Made by a program: the position numbers and the translations under genes. From a virus, in the IMG/VR virus record IMGVR_UViG_3300007734_000751, positions 1 through 64,000 of that record: a DNA stretch of 64,000 nt; one strand, written 5' to 3'. Positions 3,889 to 34,874 of this stretch are shown here, piece by piece. The notes beneath the pieces were generated by a model. That model was not told where the DNA came from. It saw nothing but the letters and a program-made list of their open reading frames with translations, and ran no database searches. Position 1 is the first letter of the stretch, and each line of letters begins with the position of its first letter.

Positions 3889-6323
3889 TGTTTTCATCTA
3901 AGGATCTATTCTTCACACCTGCGGCTGGCGGTTACACCGTCAGTAAAAGTCTGCGTTTTCGTTCAGGTTCAACAACTTATTTAAATAGAACGCAAGGATC
4001 GCCTACAAATCAAATTAAATGGACTTGGAGCGCATGGGTTAAATTAGGAACATTAGGCGTCGATAGGACATTATTTGGCGCTGCGAATGCAGGCTCGGCT
4101 CCTTACGCAAGTATTTTTGTTACTAGCGGCGATAATTTGCGAATGAACGCGTCGCTTAATGGTTCTACAAGTGATGTCGATTTAATTACAACTTCAGTAT
4201 ATCGAGATCCGTCAGCTTGGTATCATATTGTTTTTATATACGATAGCGCGCAAGGAACTTCAACAAATAGATGTTCACTATACGTTAATGGCGTTCAGGT
4301 AACATCATTTTCTACGTCTACTTATCCTGGTTCTAGTGTAACAACAGCTATAAACACTAATACTTATGCAGCGGCCTTTGGTAGACGCCAAAATGGTGCA
4401 ACATGGTATTTTGATGGCTATTTAGCCGAAGTAAATTTTGTAGATGGCTCTGCGCTAACGCCTAGCTCATTTGGCGCGTATGATACGAATGGTGTCTGGC
4501 AACCAATTACACCGTCAGTATCAAGTTACGGAACTAACGGTTTTTATTTAAAATTCACAGATGTTGGTGCGACGTCTGGCAGCAACACAGGTTACGGTAA
4601 AGATTTTAGCACCAACACAAACTATTGGACGACGAATAACTTTGGCACCACCTCGACAGCCACAACATACGACTCGATGCTGGACTCGCCAACTAATGCG
4701 GCTGGCGATATTGGAAATTATTGCGTATTAAATCCATTAGATAACTATAATAACACCGTATCAGATGGTAATTTAACTGCAATATTATTGGGTTGGCCCG
4801 GAGGGTCAAATCCTAATGGTAATATAGCCGGATCTATAGCTGTTACATCAGGTAAATATTACTGGGAAGTTACTGTAACCGCAGCAACATCTAATGGTGT
4901 AGGTATTGGTGTTGCTAGAGGCGCTGATGGCATTACAGGATATACATCGTCTGGTGTCTATTATTTAGCGACCGGCAATAGTCAAACAGACGGCGGCACC
5001 GCGACAGCATATGGTGCGACATATGGTGTTAATGATGTCATTGGAGTTGCCTTAGACGCTACTGGCGGCACTGTTACATTTTACAAGCAAACAGGCGGCA
5101 CGGGATCTTTTACCGCATATAGCGCACTTACGTTGCCAAGTTCATCAAGCGGATGGAAACCTAAACTCGGAAATACTGCGGGAAGCGGGAATAGTTGGAC
5201 AATTGTTTTTAATGCAGGGCAACGCCCGCTTAACAATACAATTCCATCCGGCTATTCTCCGTTGACAACTCAAAATCTGAGCACACCGACGATCACCAAC
5301 GGCGCGCAGTATATGGCTGCGACGACTTATACGGGTAATGGCACTAGCATAACTGTTTCTAATTCCGCGAACAATACTATAGGCACAACGTTTCAGCCAG
5401 ATTTTGTATGGGTTAAAAAACGTTCAGCGGCTGGCAATAACGCGTTGTTTGACGTAATTCGAGGCGTCACAAAATATTTGATTTCTGATAGCACTTTAGC
5501 GGAAGGAACCGATGTTCAAACGCTAACGTCTTTTAACTCCACTGGATTTACATACGGAAATGAAGCATCGGGTAACGTAAATGGTGCGACCTTCGTCGGC
5601 TGGCAATGGAAAGCCAACGGCACAGGCGTATCCAACACCTCCGGCTCTATCACAAGCACAGTAAGCGCCAACACAAGCGCAGGGTTTAGTGTTGTTACTT
5701 ATACTGGTAATGGAACCATTGGGGCTACGATTGGACACGGGTTAGGGGTAAAACCATCTTTAATTATTGCTAAGACAAGAAGCAATGCTGATAATTGGCC
5801 TGTTTATCATACAAGCCTCGGCGCGACTAAATACATTTATTTAAATACTACAGGTGCCGAACAAACCAGTAGCACAACGTGGAATAATACAGAACCAACA
5901 TCTTCTGTCTTTACTGTCTATAATGATACAAGAATTAACGCATCAAGCTATACTTACGTAGCCTACTGTTTCGCTCCCGTGGCCGGATATTCAGCCTTTG
6001 GCAGCTATACGGGGAATGGCTCGACTGATGGGCCGTTTGTTTATACAGGCTTTAGGCCGCGATGGTTGTTGTTTAAACAGTCATCAGCGGCGGGCGAATA
6101 TTGGCATGTTATGGATACATCACGAAGTCCCTATAATGCCGTCGCATTAGATTTATACCCAAACTTATCAAATGCCGAAGCAACATATACTACGCCACCT
6201 TTTGATTTTGTATCGAACGGTTTCAAAATTAGAGACAGCAATACAGGATGGAATACTAACGGCGCTACATACATCTACGCTTGCTTCGCCGAAAACCCCT
6301 TTAAGATCAGTAGGGCACGATAA
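3888..6323 (+). CDS. Receptor-binding tail protein (LamG/ConA-like + SPRY-like + C-terminal beta domain)
   Basis: WTWSAWVK, RDPSAWYHIV, YFDGYLAEVNFVDG (LamG-like); SGKYYWEV...DVIGVALD (SPRY-like); PDFVWVKKRS. Confidence 0.8.
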   Translation: MFSSKDLFFTPAAGGYTVSKSLRFRSGSTTYLNRTQGSPTNQIKWTWSAWVKLGTLGVDRTLFGAANAGSAPYASIFVTSGDNLRMNASLNGSTSDVDLITTSVYRDPSAWYHIVFIYDSAQGTSTNRCSLYVNGVQVTSFSTSTYPGSSVTTAINTNTYAAAFGRRQNGATWYFDGYLAEVNFVDGSALTPSSFGAYDTNGVWQPITPSVSSYGTNGFYLKFTDVGATSGSNTGYGKDFSTNTNYWTTNNFGTTSTATTYDSMLDSPTNAAGDIGNYCVLNPLDNYNNTVSDGNLTAILLGWPGGSNPNGNIAGSIAVTSGKYYWEVTVTAATSNGVGIGVARGADGITGYTSSGVYYLATGNSQTDGGTATAYGATYGVNDVIGVALDATGGTVTFYKQTGGTGSFTAYSALTLPSSSSGWKPKLGNTAGSGNSWTIVFNAGQRPLNNTIPSGYSPLTTQNLSTPTITNGAQYMAATTYTGNGTSITVSNSANNTIGTTFQPDFVWVKKRSAAGNNALFDVIRGVTKYLISDSTLAEGTDVQTLTSFNSTGFTYGNEASGNVNGATFVGWQWKANGTGVSNTSGSITSTVSANTSAGFSVVTYTGNGTIGATIGHGLGVKPSLIIAKTRSNADNWPVYHTSLGATKYIYLNTTGAEQTSSTTWNNTEPTSSVFTVYNDTRINASSYTYVAYCFAPVAGYSAFGSYTGNGSTDGPFVYTGFRPRWLLFKQSSAAGEYWHVMDTSRSPYNAVALDLYPNLSNAEATYTTPPFDFVSNGFKIRDSNTGWNTNGATYIYACFAENPFKISRAR

Positions 6324-26966: not shown

Positions 26967-29256
26967 AATCTTAGACTATGTCATTAGTCTTGCCGAAACC
27001 GGCGAAACGCCGCTTATCGTGCGTCAGATTCCACTTATGCGTGGTGGGGTTCATCAACAATATTTGGACGGATCTTATAAATATACTTGGCCCGCTTACT
27101 TGCCCGCGCATAAGCGCAAGAAAGGTGAAGCATGGTATATTAATACAGGTTCTTTTATTGTTGAGCGATTAAAAGACCGCATAAGCGCCGCAACAGCAAA
27201 TTGCGAATACGTGCTCTTTATGATGTTGGACGATATCGGCACTAAGTCCAAGATACCGCCGCTTAAGCCGACATGGATCGTTGAGACAAGCCCAGGCAAT
27301 TTTCAGTGGTGTTACGCATTTAGAGAACAACCTACAATAGGAGAATATTGTGCAGCCATTACAGCTATCGCCGACGCTGGTTATACCGACAAGGGCGCTA
27401 CTAATGCTGTGCGTAATTGCCGCTTGCCTGGTTCAGTTAATCTAAAGCCAGGACGCGATGCATTTACCTGCGTAGAAATAGAATTTAATCCTACTATAGA
27501 CTACACGTTAAAAGAAATATGCGATGCGCTCGGCGTTGTGCCAGGTGAAGCGTCTACGTCAATTTATAAATCAGTAACTGTAGAAGATACCGGCATTGAT
27601 AACGTAATGACGTGGCTCAACGAGCAAGGGCTTGTTCTGTCGCGTCCTAATCCTGCGGGATGGATGGGCGTTGTATGTCCTAATCACGAAGAACATAGTG
27701 ATGGACAGATTGAAGGCCGGTACAAGCCACTAGACAGATCTTATTGCTGTAAACACGCGCATTGCGAGCACCTTAACAGCGAAGCGTTTCTTACATGGGT
27801 CGCCGACAATGGTGGCCCGCGCGAGCGCCAAGGTATTCGAGGCGATCTTATTGCAAATGAATTTAAAGCAATGTTTGAAGGCATCAAGCCTAACGCGCTC
27901 TATCCAGATGTTGCATCTGAGCGTGTGGCGCAGGTAGATCGAGAAGAGGCTGGGCGTGTTGAGCGCGGTAGCTGGTATGAGCGCTTTGCGTACATCGTAG
28001 ATGACGACGCTTACTTTGACATGACAACGCGTAACGAGATCTCGCGCGGATCTTTCAATGCTATCTTTCGGCACATCAACTGCACATCAGTGCACAACCC
28101 CAAGCGCCGCATCGAGGCGTCTGTTTGTTTCGATGAGAACAGGCAAGAGCACAAAGCAAAATTATTGAAAGGCTTAACCTATGCGGCAGGTGAAAAGATC
28201 TTGGTGCATAAAGATGGCGAAGTCTATGGCAATAGATGGCGAGATGCGCGTCCCACTGTCGCACGAACAACTAGTGATATATCTCGCTTTACTGCCCATT
28301 GTGAACGATTGGTGGGAGATGAGATTGAACGAAACCATTGCTACGACGTTATGGCGTTTAAGCTCCAACACCCAGAAGTAAAAGTAAATCACGCCGTGTT
28401 GCATGGCGGCGATGAAGGCTCCGGCAAAGATACGATGTGGGCACCATTCATTTGGTCTGTCTGTGGCCCGAACAATCACAACTGGGGTATCATAGACAAC
28501 GAGAGCCTCTCTTCGCAGTGGGGCTATCAGCTAGAGAGCGAGATACTCATTCTTAACGAGCTACGCGAGCCGGAGGCCCGTGAGCGCCGCGCGCTGGCTA
28601 ACAAGCTCAAGCCCATTATTGCTGCGCCGCCTGACATGCTGCCGATCAACCGCAAGGGTCTGCATCCTTACGAGATGATCAACCGGCTGCTTGTGCTCGC
28701 GTTCACCAACGATCCGATTCCGATCTCTATACCGTCGCAAGACCGCCGCTGGTTCTGTCTGTGGTCTACTGCGCCGCGCATGTCGCCCGATGAGGCGCGT
28801 GAGATCTGGGCCTGGTATAAGGCCGGTGGCTTTGAGGCTATCGCCGCTTGGCTCTATGCGCGCGATGTGAGCAAGTTCAACCCTACCGCTGCGCCGCCTA
28901 TCACTGATTTCAAGCTTTCGCTTGTTGAGCATGGCATGTCTATGGCCGAGAGCTTTATCGTCGAGATGGCGCGCGGTCGCAAAGGCGATTTTGCTGCCGG
29001 CGTTATCGGTGGCCCGTTCCACGACATATGCTCGCGTATAAGCACCATGGCAGGCAATGGCGTTAAGGTGCCACAGGCAGCGCTTCTCCATGCGCTCAAG
29101 GAGGCCGGCTGGATAGATTGCGGGCGGCTGCACTCAGGTAAATATCAGACCAAGCGCCATGTGTTCTGCGCGCCTGAGATGGCTAGTCATAAAAATTCCG
29201 ACCTTCGGAACATGTGCGAACCCAATCCAACCCCAACCCTACAGGTGGTCAAATGA
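26956..29256 (+). CDS. Primase-helicase (RepB-type primase, Zn finger, SF3/D5-like helicase)
   Basis: LDDIG, WIVETSPGNFQW, RLPGSVNLK; CPNHEEH..C.HAHC; Walker A GDEGSGKDT. Confidence 0.88.
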   Translation: MENRILDYVISLAETGETPLIVRQIPLMRGGVHQQYLDGSYKYTWPAYLPAHKRKKGEAWYINTGSFIVERLKDRISAATANCEYVLFMMLDDIGTKSKIPPLKPTWIVETSPGNFQWCYAFREQPTIGEYCAAITAIADAGYTDKGATNAVRNCRLPGSVNLKPGRDAFTCVEIEFNPTIDYTLKEICDALGVVPGEASTSIYKSVTVEDTGIDNVMTWLNEQGLVLSRPNPAGWMGVVCPNHEEHSDGQIEGRYKPLDRSYCCKHAHCEHLNSEAFLTWVADNGGPRERQGIRGDLIANEFKAMFEGIKPNALYPDVASERVAQVDREEAGRVERGSWYERFAYIVDDDAYFDMTTRNEISRGSFNAIFRHINCTSVHNPKRRIEASVCFDENRQEHKAKLLKGLTYAAGEKILVHKDGEVYGNRWRDARPTVARTTSDISRFTAHCERLVGDEIERNHCYDVMAFKLQHPEVKVNHAVLHGGDEGSGKDTMWAPFIWSVCGPNNHNWGIIDNESLSSQWGYQLESEILILNELREPEARERRALANKLKPIIAAPPDMLPINRKGLHPYEMINRLLVLAFTNDPIPISIPSQDRRWFCLWSTAPRMSPDEAREIWAWYKAGGFEAIAAWLYARDVSKFNPTAAPPITDFKLSLVEHGMSMAESFIVEMARGRKGDFAAGVIGGPFHDICSRISTMAGNGVKVPQAALLHALKEAGWIDCGRLHSGKYQTKRHVFCAPEMASHKNSDLRNMCEPNPTPTLQVVK

Positions 29257-29453
29257 AACCCGGTGCTATGCATGCCTTGAAAGATCCGTCACGTCTAACG
29301 CCTGCCGAGGAGCGCATATACGCCTACATGAAAGAGGGTTTGACCGCGAAGGAGATTGCTGTGAGAATAGGAACTGGAACTGCGGGAGCGATGAACTGCC
29401 GCATCAAGGTCATACGAGAAAAGCTTGCTACGCGCCTTATGCCTACTGGTTAG
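29253..29453 (+). CDS. Stand-alone LuxR-type HTH regulator
   Basis: LTPAEERIYAYMKEGLTAKEIAVRIG; ATGA-coupled to primase. Confidence 0.72.
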   Translation: MKPGAMHALKDPSRLTPAEERIYAYMKEGLTAKEIAVRIGTGTAGAMNCRIKVIREKLATRLMPTG

Positions 29454-29523
29454 GGTTACCGTTTTATGGATGCTTTTCATTTGGTTCTTTATTGAGAACC
29501 GAAAGAGGGTAGGTAATGGTTGA
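29425..29523 (+). CDS. Possible 32-aa membrane peptide (TTG start)
   Basis: MLRALCLLVRVTVLWMLFIWFFIENRKRVGNG bridges the two neighbouring genes. Confidence 0.3.
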   Translation: MLRALCLLVRVTVLWMLFIWFFIENRKRVGNG

Positions 29524-29968
29524 CGAAGTAAACGCATTGCTCGGCAGGATAGCCAGGGAGCGCTATTCTAGCAAAGAGGCGCTCAAAGACCTGCCGGAAC
29601 CATCCTACTTGGATGACCTTACGTTTATGTATCAGCATAACTTTATGCCGCGATACAACGCGCTCGCGGCGCAATTGTTCGGGCCTGGGCCATCCTACAG
29701 CGACCCCTTAACGAGCCGTGAGCGCTCGCCTGTAGGGTTTATGGGCGACATGCCTACACAGGCTACCCCAGCCCAGCCGATGGCCCTGAACGCCTTCGTC
29801 TTTAATCCTATGCGCGCCTATCCGCGCTATTACACCGCAACTGAAACCTCTAATGAAGACGTTAAAGGCCCAAGCAAGTTGATGGAAGGTTTTAGCTATT
29901 TAGGCAACGACCGCCCCTGGGGCTTTATGGATATGACCTCGGGGCGCTATCCAGGCTTCGTCAAATAA
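29516..29968 (+). CDS. Hypothetical protein
   Basis: 150-aa ORF with GAGGG RBS, ends at the terminator hairpin. Confidence 0.6.
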   Translation: MVDEVNALLGRIARERYSSKEALKDLPEPSYLDDLTFMYQHNFMPRYNALAAQLFGPGPSYSDPLTSRERSPVGFMGDMPTQATPAQPMALNAFVFNPMRAYPRYYTATETSNEDVKGPSKLMEGFSYLGNDRPWGFMDMTSGRYPGFVK

Positions 29969-30000
29969 AAGCCCTCTAGCTATGGGGGCAGCTAGAGGGC
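29967..30000 (-). terminator. Rho-independent terminator of the leftward early transcript (possibly bidirectional)
   Basis: 11-bp stem gccctctagct/agctagagggc with UUUU on the minus strand; convergent genes. Confidence 0.78.
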
Positions 30001-30045
30001 AGGAGGCTTGCATATAAGGCCAAGGGAGGAGGCCATAGGCCGCAC
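29967..30045 (-). ncRNA. Candidate cuckoo-like (CCUCCUCCC) anti-SD small RNA
   Basis: Minus strand GGCCUAUGG-CCUCCUCCC-UUGGCC hairpin, second CCUCCUGCCC motif, then C-loop terminator. Confidence 0.45.
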
Positions 30046-30096
30046 CCTAACGCATCACGATAAACGCTACAAGACCTAAAACGAAAAGCGTTAAGA

Positions 30097-30282
30097 TCAA
30101 AACATCGTATCCAGATACTGGACAATTTCCGCTTCTGTCATGCCTGTCTTTCTAGTCCATTTTGTCCAGAAACGCCACAGAGGCTTGTTGACATTCTCGC
30201 ATGGCTCGTCGCGTGGAATGTCGGGAATGGTGCATTGCAGCTCCTCGTATTGCTCTAGAAAATATTCTTTTATTTTAGACAT
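30097..30282 (-). CDS. Early hypothetical protein
   Basis: GAGGTG RBS; in the early operon. Confidence 0.55.
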   Translation of the reverse strand: MSKIKEYFLEQYEELQCTIPDIPRDEPCENVNKPLWRFWTKWTRKTGMTEAEIVQYLDTMF

Positions 30283-30291
30283 AGCAGCACC

Positions 30292-30549
30292 TCAATGATT
30301 GCTGTTACTAGGACAATAAACGCCGATTCTTCGTTTTTCATAGTTAATCCCGCTTATGATGGTTGTATGGTCGCGTTTAAAGACGCGCGCTATTTGCGTA
30401 TAAGTTTTATCGGTTTCTATATGCGCGCGATACATGGCCTTGCGGCGCACTGCGATAACGCGCAGCGTGTTGTTATAAGAGATAAGGGTTTCATAGCTTA
30501 ACCCCGCCGCTTTCGCCTCCTCTTGTATTATTTGCTTTATTGTTTTCAT
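30292..30549 (-). CDS. DnaA C-terminal (domain IV) HTH-like protein
   Basis: RRKAMY...TYTQIARVFKRDHTTIISG matches the DnaA domain IV RDHTTV signature. Confidence 0.8.
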   Translation of the reverse strand: MKTIKQIIQEEAKAAGLSYETLISYNNTLRVIAVRRKAMYRAHIETDKTYTQIARVFKRDHTTIISGINYEKRRIGVYCPSNSNH

Positions 30550-30751
30550 GTGGCCCCATATTAAAAGCAAAATTTAAAGCGCTCGCTATTGTCGCCAAAC
30601 CGCGCAAGTCTGCATGCGTTACGTAAAGGCGCATGATCGGCGTTTCTTTTCCATCACACTTGTAAATGATAACGCAGCTAGTGTTATCAGTCTTGATTGC
30701 TTTAGCTTTCATGCGCCCTGGGTGGTCACAAAATAAATCAAGATGTAGCAT
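30491..30751 (-). CDS. Early hypothetical protein
   Basis: Coupled ORF in the leftward operon. Confidence 0.5.
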   Translation of the reverse strand: MLHLDLFCDHPGRMKAKAIKTDNTSCVIIYKCDGKETPIMRLYVTHADLRGLATIASALNFAFNMGPHENNKANNTRGGESGGVKL

Positions 30752-30989
30752 TTAATTTTTCCTTGTATTTTTTGACCATGCCTTCAAGGTAGCCATTGCG
30801 GACTGATAACTCTAAAATCTTGTCCTCCATGTCTTTAACTGTCCCAAACCCCCTTGCGACATAATTTAATTGTCTTTGAAGGCGTTCAATTTCCTTGTTT
30901 GCCTTTTTTAACTCGCGCAACAATAAGATCGGCTTGTTAAGCTCGTTAATCACATCATCTATTGGATTAGTTTTTCGTGGCGCGCGCAT
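30738..30989 (-). CDS. Early coiled-coil hypothetical protein
   Basis: GAGGGGG RBS; coupled ORF. Confidence 0.55.
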   Translation of the reverse strand: MRAPRKTNPIDDVINELNKPILLLRELKKANKEIERLQRQLNYVARGFGTVKDMEDKILELSVRNGYLEGMVKKYKEKLNATS

Positions 30990-31098
30990 TGATTTCCCCC
31001 TCTATTAACTCGCGGCGTGTCTCGTCACCCTCACCCTGTAACATTAGCTCAAGCGCCGGTGTGGATAGGCGATAAAGCAAACAGCAAAAATCGTACAT
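30967..31098 (-). CDS. Possible 43-aa early protein (not in ORF track)
   Basis: GAGG RBS; MYDFCCLLYRLSTPALELML...; fills an operon gap. Confidence 0.35.
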   Translation of the reverse strand: MYDFCCLLYRLSTPALELMLQGEGDETRRELIEGEINARATKN

Positions 31099-31099
31099 G

Positions 31100-31198
31100 C
31101 TAGCCTCGTTCTATTAGGTAAAGTATGGTTATGATTGCCGCAGGTATGGCTAGGCTAACGCTTGCCGCTAGCCCTATGAGATAAAGAGCTTGCCTCAT
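31100..31198 (-). CDS. 32-aa membrane peptide (not in ORF track)
   Basis: MRQALYLIGLAASVSLAIPAAIITILYLIERG; ATGA coupling. Confidence 0.45.
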   Translation of the reverse strand: MRQALYLIGLAASVSLAIPAAIITILYLIERG

Positions 31199-31509
31199 AT
31201 GTCTGCCTCATAACATGCGTCTTCTTCACATGATTGCTGCACATGGTCGCTATTTATTAGCGCGTCATATATAAGCTTATAAAGCCAGTGATCCTGGCTA
31301 AGATTAAGAGGCGACAAGTCTTTTTTATTGTTATGCAAAACAATTGACGTGATATCGATATCAGTGGCCCAGGCGTCAAAAATTCCTACGTCCGGCTCCG
31401 CGTCAGCCATTGTATACTCTATATCCGCTTCCCCTGTAGCTGTGACGGCATAGCCTGGAATTAACTCCAGCTCCTCAAAATTATATGTGAACGTGTTCGT
31501 CTTTTTCAT
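31195..31509 (-). CDS. Acidic early protein
   Basis: AGGGGG RBS; D/E-rich with EPDVGI motif. Confidence 0.6.
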   Translation of the reverse strand: MKKTNTFTYNFEELELIPGYAVTATGEADIEYTMADAEPDVGIFDAWATDIDITSIVLHNNKKDLSPLNLSQDHWLYKLIYDALINSDHVQQSCEEDACYEADI

Positions 31510-31519
31510 GTTATCCCCC

Positions 31520-31705
31520 TTAGTCGTTCTCAGCCGTTCTATCCCAGTCATACCGCGCGCAGTGTTGGCGCTCGGCTTCGTTGTCGTACTCTTCTTGCAT
31601 AGTGTGCAGCGCGTCGATTAAATGCCAAGGCAAGGGCGCGGGTTGAGCGTTTAAGATTTTAATAAGCGCCTCGACCGCCTCATGTTCTAGTGTTAGCTCT
31701 ATCAT
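31520..31705 (-). CDS. Early hypothetical protein
   Basis: GGGG RBS then MIELTLEHEA. Confidence 0.5.
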   Translation of the reverse strand: MIELTLEHEAVEALIKILNAQPAPLPWHLIDALHTMQEEYDNEAERQHCARYDWDRTAEND

Positions 31706-31706
31706 G

Positions 31707-31913
31707 TTACACCCCATAGGTTTCGATATATTGACGCGCCGCGCGATAGCCCATGACGGTAAACGCGTCATTAATTTGATCGATATATTTAAGCTCGGCT
31801 TGCTCATTAACGCCGCGCATAGCGTCAGCAGCAGCTCTCGCGTCTTTAACAATATATTCAAGCTCGGCGTCAGTCTTTTTATGATATGGGTGATCTTTTA
31901 ATGGCTTTTTCAT
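31707..31913 (-). CDS. Early hypothetical protein
   Basis: ELEYIVKDARAAA...KYIDQINDA; coupled ORF. Confidence 0.6.
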   Translation of the reverse strand: MKKPLKDHPYHKKTDAELEYIVKDARAAADAMRGVNEQAELKYIDQINDAFTVMGYRAARQYIETYGV

Positions 31914-32137
31914 TTTAACATCCCCTTCAATTCTGCCTTAACGCGCCGCGCGGTATCGCCGCGCCATGTCGAGGCGTTACATAAAAAATAGCGAACAATA
32001 CTTTCGCCGCTATCATAACCATAGGGTTGATTGATATCGTCCAGCGTCGACATAGCTTGCAGGTATGGTACCGCGCCAAAGTATGGCTTGCGCCAGTCTT
32101 GCGCTATCTCGCGCGCTATTGTTGATAGTGTTCTCAT
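31910..32137 (-). CDS. Conserved phage early protein of unknown function
   Basis: IAREI..DW.KPYFGAVPYL.AM...YG.DS...V.YFL.NA.TWRG..AR..KAELK, a pattern I recognise from many phages. Confidence 0.7.
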   Translation of the reverse strand: MRTLSTIAREIAQDWRKPYFGAVPYLQAMSTLDDINQPYGYDSGESIVRYFLCNASTWRGDTARRVKAELKGMLK

Positions 32138-32406
32138 AATATAACCCCCTCTCTTAAAGCTTGCGCCATGTCATCTTGCGCCGTGTAAGTAACGCGCCCC
32201 CTATGATCTTTTATTGGTGTTGTTTTGTATCGTGTCCCGAACAAGCGCCCGCGCTCATAGGCCCATTGATCGTTGAGCGTTTTTCCCGCGTCATAATTAA
32301 ATGGTTTACCTTCACGCGCCTCTTTAACGCCGCGATTGAATAGAGCGCTCCTCATTATAATTTTTAACGAAACGGTCTTAGTAGTAACTTGCTGTATGGT
32401 AGCCAT
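32134..32406 (-). CDS. Early hypothetical protein
   Basis: QWAYERGRLF motif; coupled ORF. Confidence 0.6.
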   Translation of the reverse strand: MATIQQVTTKTVSLKIIMRSALFNRGVKEAREGKPFNYDAGKTLNDQWAYERGRLFGTRYKTTPIKDHRGRVTYTAQDDMAQALREGVIL

Positions 32407-33176
32407 TATGCGGCCCTCCCTACGCGGAACCCGTGAAGGTTAATCACGATATCTTTAGACGATTTACTGCTATTGCCAGCGCATAGGCCGCATTTATCGC
32501 AGCTAGTGCGCGCGCCGTTTTCTTTAGCGGCAGGGCAACCAATTTCATTAGATGATTTAACGTCTTTAGATTTTTTGGCGCGGAAGGTTCGCCATCCACA
32601 AGCGCTAGCAAGTAAATGGTCTGATTCTGATTCGCAGCTAGCCATACATAGCAGCGAGAAAGCCTGAAAGCGCGGGTCGCGCCATTGGTGGCTATAGCCT
32701 GTAATCTTGGCAGCTCTTAACGTCGCGGCGCGCCATATCTGAAAAGGTATTGCGGCAGGGTCGCCATACGTGCCAAGTCTAAACGCTAGCCCTTCAAATA
32801 GCTCCGGCAATATAGCAGGGTCATAGTCTATGCCAGGGCGCGCATAGCGCTTGCGCTCATATGCGCCGTAAACGCTCACTACTGATTTAGCCACGTCAAC
32901 GTAGCATTTACCGCCCTTGAAGGGTCGCTGGGGGCAATCTCCACAAATGCTATGATCACGCCCGTCTTTAATTGCTGTAAAAGGATTAACATCGGCGCGT
33001 ATTATGAAAGTCTGAACCATTGCGCCGGTCTTAGCATTGGCGCTATTCGCGATAATGCGATTAGCTATCGCCACGATAGGCGCGCCATCGATGGCGCTTG
33101 GCCCTTCATATAATATCACGCCGGTAAATTGATTGCGCTTTATCGCTAGGCGCAAGGCGCTTGCTGTATCAATCAT
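32406..33176 (-). CDS. Cys-rich gp88-like / radical-SAM-like Fe-S candidate
   Basis: NAKTG, CGDCP..CYV, RLGTYGDP, TGYSH, CPA...CDKCGLC; GAGGG RBS before ATG 33,176. Confidence 0.6.
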   Translation of the reverse strand: MIDTASALRLAIKRNQFTGVILYEGPSAIDGAPIVAIANRIIANSANAKTGAMVQTFIIRADVNPFTAIKDGRDHSICGDCPQRPFKGGKCYVDVAKSVVSVYGAYERKRYARPGIDYDPAILPELFEGLAFRLGTYGDPAAIPFQIWRAATLRAAKITGYSHQWRDPRFQAFSLLCMASCESESDHLLASACGWRTFRAKKSKDVKSSNEIGCPAAKENGARTSCDKCGLCAGNSSKSSKDIVINLHGFRVGRAA

Positions 33177-33212
33177 TAGACTACCCTCATATTGAGACAA
33201 AAAGACATTAGG

Positions 33213-33244
33213 ACGTTAACACAAAATCTTTATTAGTCAATAGC
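33213..33244 (-). promoter_or_regulatory. Early sigma70-like promoter P2
   Basis: TTGACT-16-TAACGT; shares GCTATTGACTAA with P1. Confidence 0.6.
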
Positions 33245-33509
33245 CTCTATTGTGATCATAGTTACGAATTTTTGATCTTTTTTCGCGCGCGACGCGTTCG
33301 CGGAATTTTGGGTTGCTATTCGTTCTCTCGCGATAGCGAACGATAAACAACGACGCGTCGCAATCCTCCTCTAGGTAAAGATCGTCGCCTCGGCGATAGC
33401 TATATGAGCTAAAGTCCGCCGACGTTAATCCTAGAGCGAACAAATCGCGGGTGTTTACCTTCAACCATCCATGACCAGGGTCAGATATAAAATCAAATGT
33501 CGTACGCAT
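33237..33509 (-). CDS. Conserved phage early protein (DPGHGWL...YLEEDCD family)
   Basis: DPGHGWLKV, SSYSY, YLEEDCDA motifs; AAGGA RBS. Confidence 0.7.
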   Translation of the reverse strand: MRTTFDFISDPGHGWLKVNTRDLFALGLTSADFSSYSYRRGDDLYLEEDCDASLFIVRYRERTNSNPKFRERVAREKRSKIRNYDHNRGY

Positions 33510-33547
33510 GATATTTAATCCTTTTTAGTTAGAGATTAGAGCGGCGC

Positions 33548-33745
33548 TTATGCGCGCCGCTTTCTTTTCTTTGGTGCTACGTATTGCGCCGCTTGTTGCT
33601 CATAGTGCTCGACATGTCTTTGCAATTGCTCGACCGTCGTAAAGAAAGCGCAAAAAGTCATTATGTCTTGGTTGATATTTGCGGGATGATTTTGCGCCGA
33701 TGTTAAACGCGCCATCAGTTCGGGGTTGCTTTTCCATATGGTCAT
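33548..33745 (-). CDS. First early gene, hypothetical
   Basis: GAGGAG RBS directly downstream of P1; QDIMTFCAF motif. Confidence 0.65.
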   Translation of the reverse strand: MTIWKSNPELMARLTSAQNHPANINQDIMTFCAFFTTVEQLQRHVEHYEQQAAQYVAPKKRKRRA

Positions 33746-33779
33746 TTTGGGTTGCTCCTCTTTGCGATTTGATGATCAT

Positions 33780-33811
33780 ATATTAGCAAAGATTTTTTGT
33801 TAGTCAATAGC
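33780..33811 (-). promoter_or_regulatory. Early sigma70-like promoter P1
   Basis: TTGACT-16-TAATAT. Confidence 0.65.
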
Positions 33812-33840
33812 TTTTTTGTTAAAAGCAAAGATTTTTTGTT
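33785..33840 (+). repeat. 17-bp direct repeat AGCAAAGATTTTTTGTT (two copies), operator candidate
   Basis: Copies at 33,785-33,801 and 33,824-33,840, the first inside the P1 spacer. Confidence 0.65.
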
Positions 33841-33845
33841 TATTC

Positions 33846-34230
33846 TGGTCTTGATGGTCTTGAATGGTTAAATATATTTTAAAAATGACCATGTTAAACG
33901 TGTTGAATTGGCGGGTTTTAGTGTTAAATGGTCATTATGGTCATTATTGTTTAATTCTAAGAAAAATTTATATATGTATACAAATAAAGATAGTGTGTCA
34001 CCATTCTTGGCGCGATTTTTTCCGCGTGACCATTTGACCATAATGACCAAAAGCCCCTCTTCTTTGCCGCGTTTTCTTCCCCCATGTTGACATATATGTT
34101 TACATTCATATACCAGTGTGACCTCCGACTAGTAAACGCGTGACCATAATGACCATGAGTTATGTCGACATTTGAATGACAACTTAGTTTATGTAAACAT
34201 AGTTGACAATCATTTGACTAAACGACCATG
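33846..34230. other. Putative replication origin with TGACCA/TGGTCA iteron-like repeats
   Basis: About a dozen GACC/GGTC motifs in both orientations around an AT-rich core; largest non-coding region; strand switch. Confidence 0.6.
33867..33882 (-). promoter_or_regulatory. CtrA-type box TTAA-N7-TTAAC
   Basis: Minus strand reads TTAA-aatatat-TTAAC. Confidence 0.35.
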
Positions 34231-34349
34231 CGCGCCAATTCGACGGCATGCGACGCGACGGGGGGACTGGGCCTTGCGTGGTCTGGGAATATCTACGCAG
34301 GGATTACACAAACTTTTTTTTATTTTTAAAATATGGTAATAAAGATTCT

Positions 34350-34874
34350 ATGTTTGAAAGCTTGCCATATGAGCCTCGAAAAATAGAGGCCACAGAAAAG
34401 AATCTCGAACTAATCTACGAGGCCGCGCGCAAAGGACTTAAAGGTGACGCGTTGGCGCTAGCTGCCGGCATGATGCCGGTAGAGTATCGCCGGCTTGTGC
34501 AGTTCGACCCTATCGCTGAGTATGCGGAAACCAAAGGCCGCGCAGACGGCGAGGCTGAGATGGCGAACGTGCTCCGCACAGCCGCGTTGAACGGCGACAC
34601 TAAGGCGGCGCTTGAGATGCTCAAGCACGCGCATGGCTGGGTCGCCAAGCAGGCCGTCAGCGTAGAAGTGAACCAGACCATATCTATTACGGCGGCGCTT
34701 CAGGAGGCGCAGCAACGAGTCATCGAAGGGCAAATCATAGATGCAAACGACTATTTACAGTCCGGAGGAAGAACAGCGTTTGATGGCGACGCTGTGGAAT
34801 CCGGCGCTGAAGGACGACCCGCTGGCCTTCGTGAGATTAGCCTTCCCGTGGAAGAAGCCGAATACGCCCCTTGA
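34350..34874 (+). CDS. terS: Terminase small subunit (probable)
   Basis: Upstream of and overlapping terL; HTH-like N-terminus, ISITAALQEAQQRV C-terminus; start placed at MFESLPY. Confidence 0.7.
   Translation: MFESLPYEPRKIEATEKNLELIYEAARKGLKGDALALAAGMMPVEYRRLVQFDPIAEYAETKGRADGEAEMANVLRTAALNGDTKAALEMLKHAHGWVAKQAVSVEVNQTISITAALQEAQQRVIEGQIIDANDYLQSGGRTAFDGDAVESGAEGRPAGLREISLPVEEAEYAP

Follow-up and report, generated by a model that had tools for sequence, protein, structure and literature searches.

A conserved CCUCCC element at the 3′ end of the early operon of a freshwater phage, a candidate anti-ribosome-binding-site RNA

We have studied a short sequence that closes a block of small early genes in a virus genome known from metagenomic DNA. 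The element is a real, conserved, non-coding feature at the 3′ end of this early block. We give an even chance to the reading in which the last ~80 nt of the early operon transcript are a 3′-UTR RNA directed against ribosome-binding sites, the likeliest targets being those of the phage's own early genes. What we have observed directly is the sequence, a prediction of its fold, its conservation in divergent lineages, its linkage to the early operon and its complementarity to early ribosome-binding sites.

The window, by which we mean the whole stretch of 64,000 nucleotides that was analyzed, is the first 64 kb of the 72,555-bp virus record IMGVR_UViG_3300007734_000751. This record comprises two related phage genomes of ~37.5 kb arranged head to tail, which are 66–88% identical over most of their length; an assembly chimera or the co-packaging of two genomes could explain this. 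The section from 28952 to 34440 of the window has no nucleotide match in the second genome copy of the record. The G+C content of the sequence is ~50%, and genes for DNA polymerase, primase, helicase, exonuclease and terminase are present; no tRNA genes were found. A nucleotide search of the phage collection gave no match. By their DNA polymerase the nearest cultured phages (of Ralstonia and Sinorhizobium) are only ~33% identical, and the polymerase of MW202483.1 is 60.6% identical. DNA of the element was found in freshwater, river, lake and estuary metagenomes; the small word shares in RNA runs are no evidence of habitat.

The element is situated at a convergent junction, where a plus-strand ORF of 150 aa ends at 29968 and a minus-strand block of small genes arrives from the opposite side. 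This block extends from 33745 to 30097, and was assigned as early from its gene make-up. Its 3′ end consists of a gene for a DnaA C-terminal helix-turn-helix (HTH) protein, followed by that for a 61-aa protein and then by a hydrophobic ORF of 17 codons with its stop at 30047. The positions of these genes, of the parts of the element and of its candidate targets are given in Table 1. The 17-codon mini-ORF is the final translated stretch ahead of the element, which begins 13 nt past its stop codon. Among relatives the substitutions in the mini-ORF are synonymous or replace one hydrophobic residue by another, and in L263 the nucleotides are different, yet the 17 codons, the hydrophobic character and the terminal R are all retained. 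To judge from these sequences, the product MILTLFVLGLVAFIVMR is probably a real membrane micropeptide.

Table 1. Positions of the element, its neighboring genes and its candidate target sites (window coordinates except where a locus is named)
Feature	Position	Strand	Remarks
Whole element	30034..29963	minus	hairpin, second CCUCCU, terminator, U tract
Hairpin 1	30018..30034	minus	GGCC 30034..30031 pairs with GGCC 30021..30018; 9-nt loop UCCUCCCUU
Anti-Shine-Dalgarno-like motif CCUCCUCCC	30032..30024	minus	3′ six letters are CCUCCC
Second motif CCUCCUGCCC, unpaired	30006..29997	minus	not conserved
Intrinsic terminator stem-loop	30000..29971	minus	12 pairs including closing G-U, 7 G-C pairs
Terminator loop CCCCCA	29988..29983	minus	predicted fold
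U tract UUUUAUUU	29970..29963	minus	directly after terminator stem-loop
17-codon hydrophobic mini-ORF MILTLFVLGLVAFIVMR	30047..30100	minus	TTG overlaps TGA of 61-aa ORF
61-aa protein, family unassigned	30097..30282	minus	homologues mark all element-bearing loci
DnaA C-terminal helix-turn-helix protein	30292..30570	minus	PF08299 at 1.3e-11
DnaA_C-only genes in other lineages	L001 7729-8055; L258 (MW202483.1) 5424-5720	minus (L001)	
GGGAGGG ribosome-binding site of 90-aa early gene (start 32406)	32414..32420	minus	best candidate target
GGGGG in ribosome-binding site of 83-aa early gene	30996..31000	minus	candidate target
Further G runs in early ribosome-binding sites	32149..32145, 31519..31515, 31925..31922	minus	

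The 61-aa protein is 50–54% identical to the 66–68-aa proteins of a second subfamily, and a profile search returned only 17 remote matches. No Pfam match, DUF1127 included, was obtained for the protein itself, for six aligned homologues or for the 17 remote relatives. In genome 2 of the record the last gene ahead of the element likewise encodes the DnaA_C domain (1.1e-18), and the annotation of MW202483.1 shows a DnaA_C gene in the same place. In all three lineages, the last early gene or the one before it encodes a protein consisting solely of the DnaA C-terminal DNA-binding domain. The annotated early region of MW202483.1 (L258) additionally includes a homing endonuclease and a cytosine-5 DNA methyltransferase (1645-2091 and 4042-5019).

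A sequence-only reading had placed a hairpin, a second motif and a terminator with its U tract on the minus strand at this position, and every letter of these was confirmed. The hairpin is indeed present, although not with the longer GGCCUAUGG arm that had been proposed for it; folding and conservation both indicate a GGCC/GGCC stem. In the predicted fold seven of the nine letters of CCUCCUCCC fall inside the hairpin loop. The terminator is the top terminator-like site between 29500 and 34500, and a U tract is absent from its plus-strand side. The 141-nt region as a whole folds better than its shuffled versions (z = −3.27, with 1 of 200 shuffles equally good), a low folding energy that comes mostly from the terminator. 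When a longer stretch of the mRNA is folded, an upstream GGG is predicted as a further possible partner for CCC in the window-type motif. On the plus strand GGGAGGAGG runs into CCATAGGCCGCACCC, which contains no ATG, GTG or TTG, bearing out the earlier statement that no start codon lies at the distance expected for a ribosome-binding site.

The nine-letter CCUCCUCCC is present as a single copy in the window and in the entire 72.5-kb record. At least one copy arises by chance in 12 of 100 shuffles, i.e., its occurrence is unremarkable taken alone. The shorter CCTCCC is rare in the window, where both strands together have 6 copies and shuffles have 13.6 ± 3.9; at 32415-32420 one of these copies is an early ribosome-binding site read on the opposite strand.

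It is therefore conservation, and not the frequency of the 9-mer, that places the element beyond chance. The exact 17-mer of the hairpin occurs in 19 IMG/VR stretches, 15 of them in the same context and four in unrelated ones, and is present in 15/15 of the informative close relatives. In the four unrelated contexts (L022, L024, L025 and L027) the same 17-mer has GGAGGAGG ~45 nt downstream. A 20-mer from the upstream mini-ORF retrieved the same 15 contigs, and a search with the DnaA_C protein found 17 close contigs, these being the same 15 together with two that end short of the element. Since the protein-based search recovers the same 15 informative contigs, the conservation counts are not an artefact of searching with the motif.

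We aligned the window with these 15 relatives, making 16 sequences in all. None of the 17 columns of the hairpin varies, and in the terminator stem-loop there is a single variable column of 30, a change from U-A to U-G. In the same alignment the two linkers vary in 8 of 11 and 9 of 17 columns, the latter including the second motif, and 36 of the 61 third codon positions of the adjacent 61-aa ORF are variable. Past the U tract all 48 of 48 columns vary, and different contigs have different genes there. The element therefore belongs to, and travels with, the minus-strand early operon. As judged from this alignment, the element is under selection as nucleotides. Two motifs had been counted in the sequence-only reading; the first is kept in all the close sequences, but 5 of the 16 lack the second CCUCCU or have a changed form of it. 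L031 and L033 have lost CCUCCUGCCC, and L035 and L042 have CCCUAGCCC in its place; these contigs have duplicates in the collection (L031 and L033 are also L012 and L008/L014; L035 and L042 are also L016 and L026).

Linker indels of 1, 2 and 5 nt occur among the close relatives, so that no reading frame is conserved across the element. A 49-aa frame spanning it (30125..29976) was considered as a coding explanation, and is broken by these indels. The proposal of a strand-specific, non-coding element that closes the minus-strand block of small genes at its 3′ end is accordingly supported, there being no ORF that explains it. No covariation of stem pairs was seen in the close subfamily, where 16 of 18 pairs are invariant, a set too shallow to be informative either way.

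We also examined more distant members of the phage family, for which at least 575 primase matches were obtained, 80 of them being fetched for comparison. Downstream of the primase, only ten of the 80 loci have a minus-strand terminator with CCTCC close by. Taking both strands, the fetched loci contain 126 terminator-like sites with CCTCC near 20 of these; nine of the 20 are the present element, and the other 11 are mostly the complements of ribosome-binding sites. Four new loci (L139-L142) encode a 66–68-aa homologue of the 61-aa protein. An alignment of these proteins, used as query, led to 33 IMG/VR and 28 metagenome loci. CCUCCC was found between the stop codon and the terminator in 31/31 informative IMG/VR loci (of the 33, 15 being the close contigs) and in 27/27 informative metagenome loci (of the 28, several being the same assemblies as IMG/VR contigs). 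The earlier claim that an anti-Shine-Dalgarno-like motif is kept by selection is therefore upheld both by the invariant hairpin columns and by the retention of CCUCCC across lineages.

Genome 2 of the record has CCUCCCC and a terminator directly after the DnaA_C-HTH gene, as does MW202483.1. The genome 2 version (L001 7586-7660, record 67586-67660, minus strand) reads GAGG...CCUCCCCUAG, followed by a 12-bp terminator with the loop UAAC, and is near-identical to that of MW202483.1. As a control, 13 distant DnaA_C loci (L060-L072) were inspected, and none has CCTCC within 180 nt downstream.

These loci provide 12 distinct 3′ UTR variants, which apart from the motif cannot be aligned. The CCUCCC is predicted to be open, with mean unpaired probabilities of 0.73–1.00, in six of them (A, which is that of the window, B, C, E, V2 and V4), and half open in variant D (0.50). 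It is predicted to be closed (0.00–0.28) in V1, V1b, V3, genome 2 and MW202483.1, where an SD-like 5′ arm is predicted to pair with it. The motif lies in a loop in A, B, E and V2, in a stem in V1 and V3, and is unpaired right after the stop codon in V4. In L263 (variant E) the pair closing the loop has changed from C-G to U-A in a compensatory manner, and the loop UAACCUCCCUU keeps CCUCCCUU. The C run in the terminator loop is kept in subfamilies 1 and 2, and is absent in V4, genome 2 and MW202483.1. The open motif loop expected from the sequence-only reading is therefore predicted for the window type but not for the five variants that pair CCUCCC; because of these five, and of the half-open D, a permanently open seed is not what is conserved. 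Across the sequences compared, the universal feature is the six-letter CCUCCC on the sense strand of the operon near the terminator.

How does the element relate to RNA families already described? At gathering thresholds no Rfam family, the ar14-type models included, was found in the window, and the ar14 model gave no match in the whole record. Searched over 501 nt, ar14 (RF02344) aligns with the element at 16.0 bits (E = 1), where the gathering threshold is 58.8, and 35 positions in the middle of the model are deleted in the alignment. Cuckoo RNAs have two to four adjacent hairpins, each with CCUCCUCCC in its loop, and all 321 members reported are in Alphaproteobacteria (PMC4615179, in the part cited here). 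The CcsR RNAs are released by cleavage from the 3′ UTR of an mRNA for a small protein, and their neighborhood has a conserved small protein of the DUF1127 type, in what are termed CIN1 loci (PMC8034643, in the part cited here). Like the cuckoo RNAs (CcsR1-4 or RSs0680a-d of Rhodobacter sphaeroides, and ar14 or NfeR1 of Sinorhizobium), the phage element presents CCUCCUCCC in a hairpin loop, which is read as an anti-Shine-Dalgarno seed. Unlike them, it has one motif hairpin, with the second copy (CCUCCUG) unpaired and CCCCCA in the terminator loop; the nine-letter CCUCCUCCC is limited to the window and its 15 close relatives, with L263, subfamily 2, genome 2 and MW202483.1 having only CCUCCC(C/U); and the neighboring protein is not DUF1127. 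Moreover, the reported cuckoo RNAs are all in Alphaproteobacteria (Rhodobacterales and Rhizobiales), whereas the element is carried by a freshwater phage. The membership of the cuckoo (ar14) family proposed in the sequence-only reading is close to refuted.

Other families share the general design. The toxic small RNAs of Betaproteobacteria are double hairpins of ~57–130 nt that have a terminator and CU-rich stretches left unpaired (PMC5688073, in the part cited here). The architecture of the element is similar to theirs (RF02278) and to that of the Burkholderia anti-hemB (RF02837) and ncS54 (RF02871) RNAs, and the first hairpin loop of the anti-hemB model, CCUCCCU, aligns with the L263 hairpin. 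The matches are all below threshold and confined to sister variants: 25.4 and 23.1 bits against 50 for RF02278, in L255 and L271, 22.4 against 49.5 for RF02837 and 23.0 against 43 for RF02871. None of these three models matches the window element at E up to 10. In Xanthomonas, sX13 uses its C-rich loops to repress mRNAs with G-rich motifs within or close to the ribosome-binding site, loops and motifs both being required, and S. aureus RNAIII and H. pylori HPnc5490 are named as further C-rich-loop sRNAs (PMC3771888, in the part cited here). Like the apical loops of sX13 (RF02232; CCCC and CCCCC), the phage loops UCCUCCCUU and CCCCCA are C-rich and predicted to be open in the window type, and like the sX13 targets the phage early genes bear GGGG(G) or GGGAGGG sites. 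In contrast to sX13, which is a stand-alone chromosomal gene with three loops, the phage element is the tail of an operon; the RF02232 model matched in L035 only, at 20.6 bits against 50. On paper the element works like these C-rich sRNAs, and it is a member of none of their families. From its sequence we regard it as a new form, found in phages, of the established C-rich anti-SD type of regulatory RNA, with a putative function.

The element had also been held to support an alphaproteobacterial host. This does not follow, as sRNAs with C-rich or anti-SD loops are also described in Xanthomonas, Burkholderia, Staphylococcus and Helicobacter (PMC3771888 and PMC5688073, in the parts cited here), and the best sub-threshold Rfam matches of sister variants are to Burkholderia and Xanthomonas models. 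Nor has the exact 17-mer any host-like homologue in 185,579 species genomes. Its 60 matches there are close to the number expected by chance (roughly estimated as ~70), and come from mixed phyla and coding-like contexts, the similarity stopping at the 17-mer; a host origin was rejected for these reasons. The second motif copy accompanies the 17-mer only in L116. The element says nothing on the identity of the host.

Potential targets are provided by the early genes themselves. The ribosome-binding sites in the minus-strand block (30097-33745) are unusually G-rich, with GGGAGGG, GAGAGGGGG, AAGGGGGA and AGAGGGGGA, and many late genes have a weak Shine-Dalgarno sequence or none. GGGG or GGGAGG occurs at −20 to −4 in 6 of 11 early genes compared to 3 of 45 others (Fisher p = 9e-4), a contrast that is based on crude gene calls and on a motif picked after looking. 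G-rich early ribosome-binding sites occur in other lineages too. Pairing of the loop UCCUCCCU with AGGGAGGG ahead of the gene at 32406, worked out by hand, gives eight pairs, and the ribosome-binding site of this gene forms the best duplex among the start regions of the operon, at −21.6 kcal/mol. Duplex energies of the whole RNA with all start regions were set aside, because unrealistically large loops were allowed. Complementarity is cheap evidence, as any anti-SD sequence fits any strong ribosome-binding site. On the sequences, the phage's own early genes are probably the most likely targets, and are better documented as such than host ribosome-binding sites. The anti-ribosome-binding-site reading is drawn from these G-rich early sites taken together with the repression of G-rich start-site mRNAs by the C-rich loops of sX13 (PMC3771888, in the part cited here).

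Could the element be a passive structure, its hairpins merely terminating the early mRNA and shielding it from 3′ exonucleases, with C-rich letters that have no partner? The terminator is strong and conserved, in five of the 12 variants the motif is just the 3′ arm of a stable hairpin, and the pairing target is so far a candidate only, all of which would be expected of such a structure. However, a shield requires a stem and not a sequence, whereas CCUCCC persists in loop, stem or unpaired positions while stems, loops and spacers all change around it. The letters of the loop are no more variable than those of the stem, and the genome otherwise avoids CCTCCC. We consider the passive explanation unlikely. 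It is more improbable again that the conserved letters act in DNA, either as a protein site (e.g., for the DnaA_C-HTH protein encoded upstream) or as the boundary of a recombination module. In every lineage the element lies behind a DnaA_C-HTH gene, mosaic junctions occur immediately past the U tract, and invariant blocks alternate with variable ones, as a DNA signal might have it; similarity to a DnaA box was checked by eye only. Yet there is one motif per genome, with no second site near promoters, and the U-G pair of the terminator and the one-sided U tract both point to an RNA of the minus strand. Furthermore L263 and subfamily 2 have diverged and nevertheless keep the RNA architecture, so that the conservation is not merely that of a recent sweep.

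Two further explanations have still less to commend them. That a true cuckoo sRNA was captured from an alphaproteobacterial host, whose regulators it would mimic, is very improbable. The exact nine letters in a hairpin loop, the rank of ar14 as top Rfam model for the window element and a location in the 3′ UTR behind a small protein, recalling ccaF1-ccsR, would all suit such a capture. They are outweighed by the low ar14 score and single motif hairpin, by relatives that have CCUCCC(C/U) in place of the nine-letter motif, by a small protein that is not DUF1127, by genome matches of the 17-mer that are near chance and extend no further, and by sister variants that lean to Burkholderia models. 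We find it scarcely credible, finally, that the plus strand is the functional one, with GGGAGGAGG as the ribosome-binding or stand-by site of a plus-strand message. A perfect SD-like sequence does lie just past the convergent 150-aa gene, but no start codon follows it, nor is there one in the reverse complements of E, V2 and V4. In addition the plus-strand neighbor changes among relatives while the element stays, and the next plus-strand gene begins ~4 kb away.

We return to the anti-ribosome-binding-site reading, and to how such an RNA could arise. The tail would be made together with the early mRNA and guarded by the terminator hairpin, after which it could either stay in cis or be cut off as a 3′-UTR-derived small RNA. 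The position of the element fits the latter class in sharing the operon terminator. A sigma-70-like promoter scan reported no promoter for a separate transcript ahead of the element. The sequence TTGTAG-17-TAGGGT within the mini-ORF was rejected as a promoter; it is a weak match made by eye and unreported by the scan, and in L263 the nucleotides of this block have diverged. As weak evidence of expression, the element is covered by contigs assembled from three metatranscriptome runs of two studies, with DNA carry-over possible; these contigs also span the convergent gene and, in some cases, the terminator, and cannot show ends or strand, and no meaning attaches to the parts they leave uncovered. 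By pairing with G-rich ribosome-binding sites the CCUCCC of the tail would stop the initiation of translation, the main candidates being phage early genes with GGGAGGG and GAGGGGG sites, and strong host ribosome-binding sites a second possible target. The outcome would be a delayed negative feedback that turns the early genes off. We infer the accumulation of the RNA, the pairing and the choice of messages. In phage T4 the RegB nuclease and the RegA repressor silence early genes through their ribosome-binding sites. The scheme proposed for the phage tail resembles this in that early messages would be shut off at the ribosome-binding site once early products accumulate, but the effector would be an RNA derived from the early message itself, in place of the T4 proteins.

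A more specific version of this scheme can be envisaged, to which we attach well below an even chance, as a doubtful extension. This freshwater podophage-like lineage might run an RNA-only timer for its early genes, in which a tail matched to the phage's own G-rich ribosome-binding sites outlives its message and stops early translation. An SD-like 'lid', which some variants have just past the last stop codon, might then tie the exposure of the motif to translation of the last ORF.

Few regulatory RNAs from virulent phages are known, and the coverage of phage regulatory RNAs in a 2025 review is mostly of prophage RNAs (PMC12197685, in the part cited here). In our full-text search of the literature we found no phage RNA that places a CCUCC-type seed where an early operon ends, and there is none of this kind in the cited parts of that review or of the phiKZ dRNA-seq paper (PMC8244752). 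The comparison made here is a caution against using CCUCC-loop RNAs as a marker of an alphaproteobacterial host. If the anti-ribosome-binding-site reading is true, the element would be a simple and portable module for repressing translation, with which a phage could control the timing of its early genes or attack heavily translated host messages, no protein being required.
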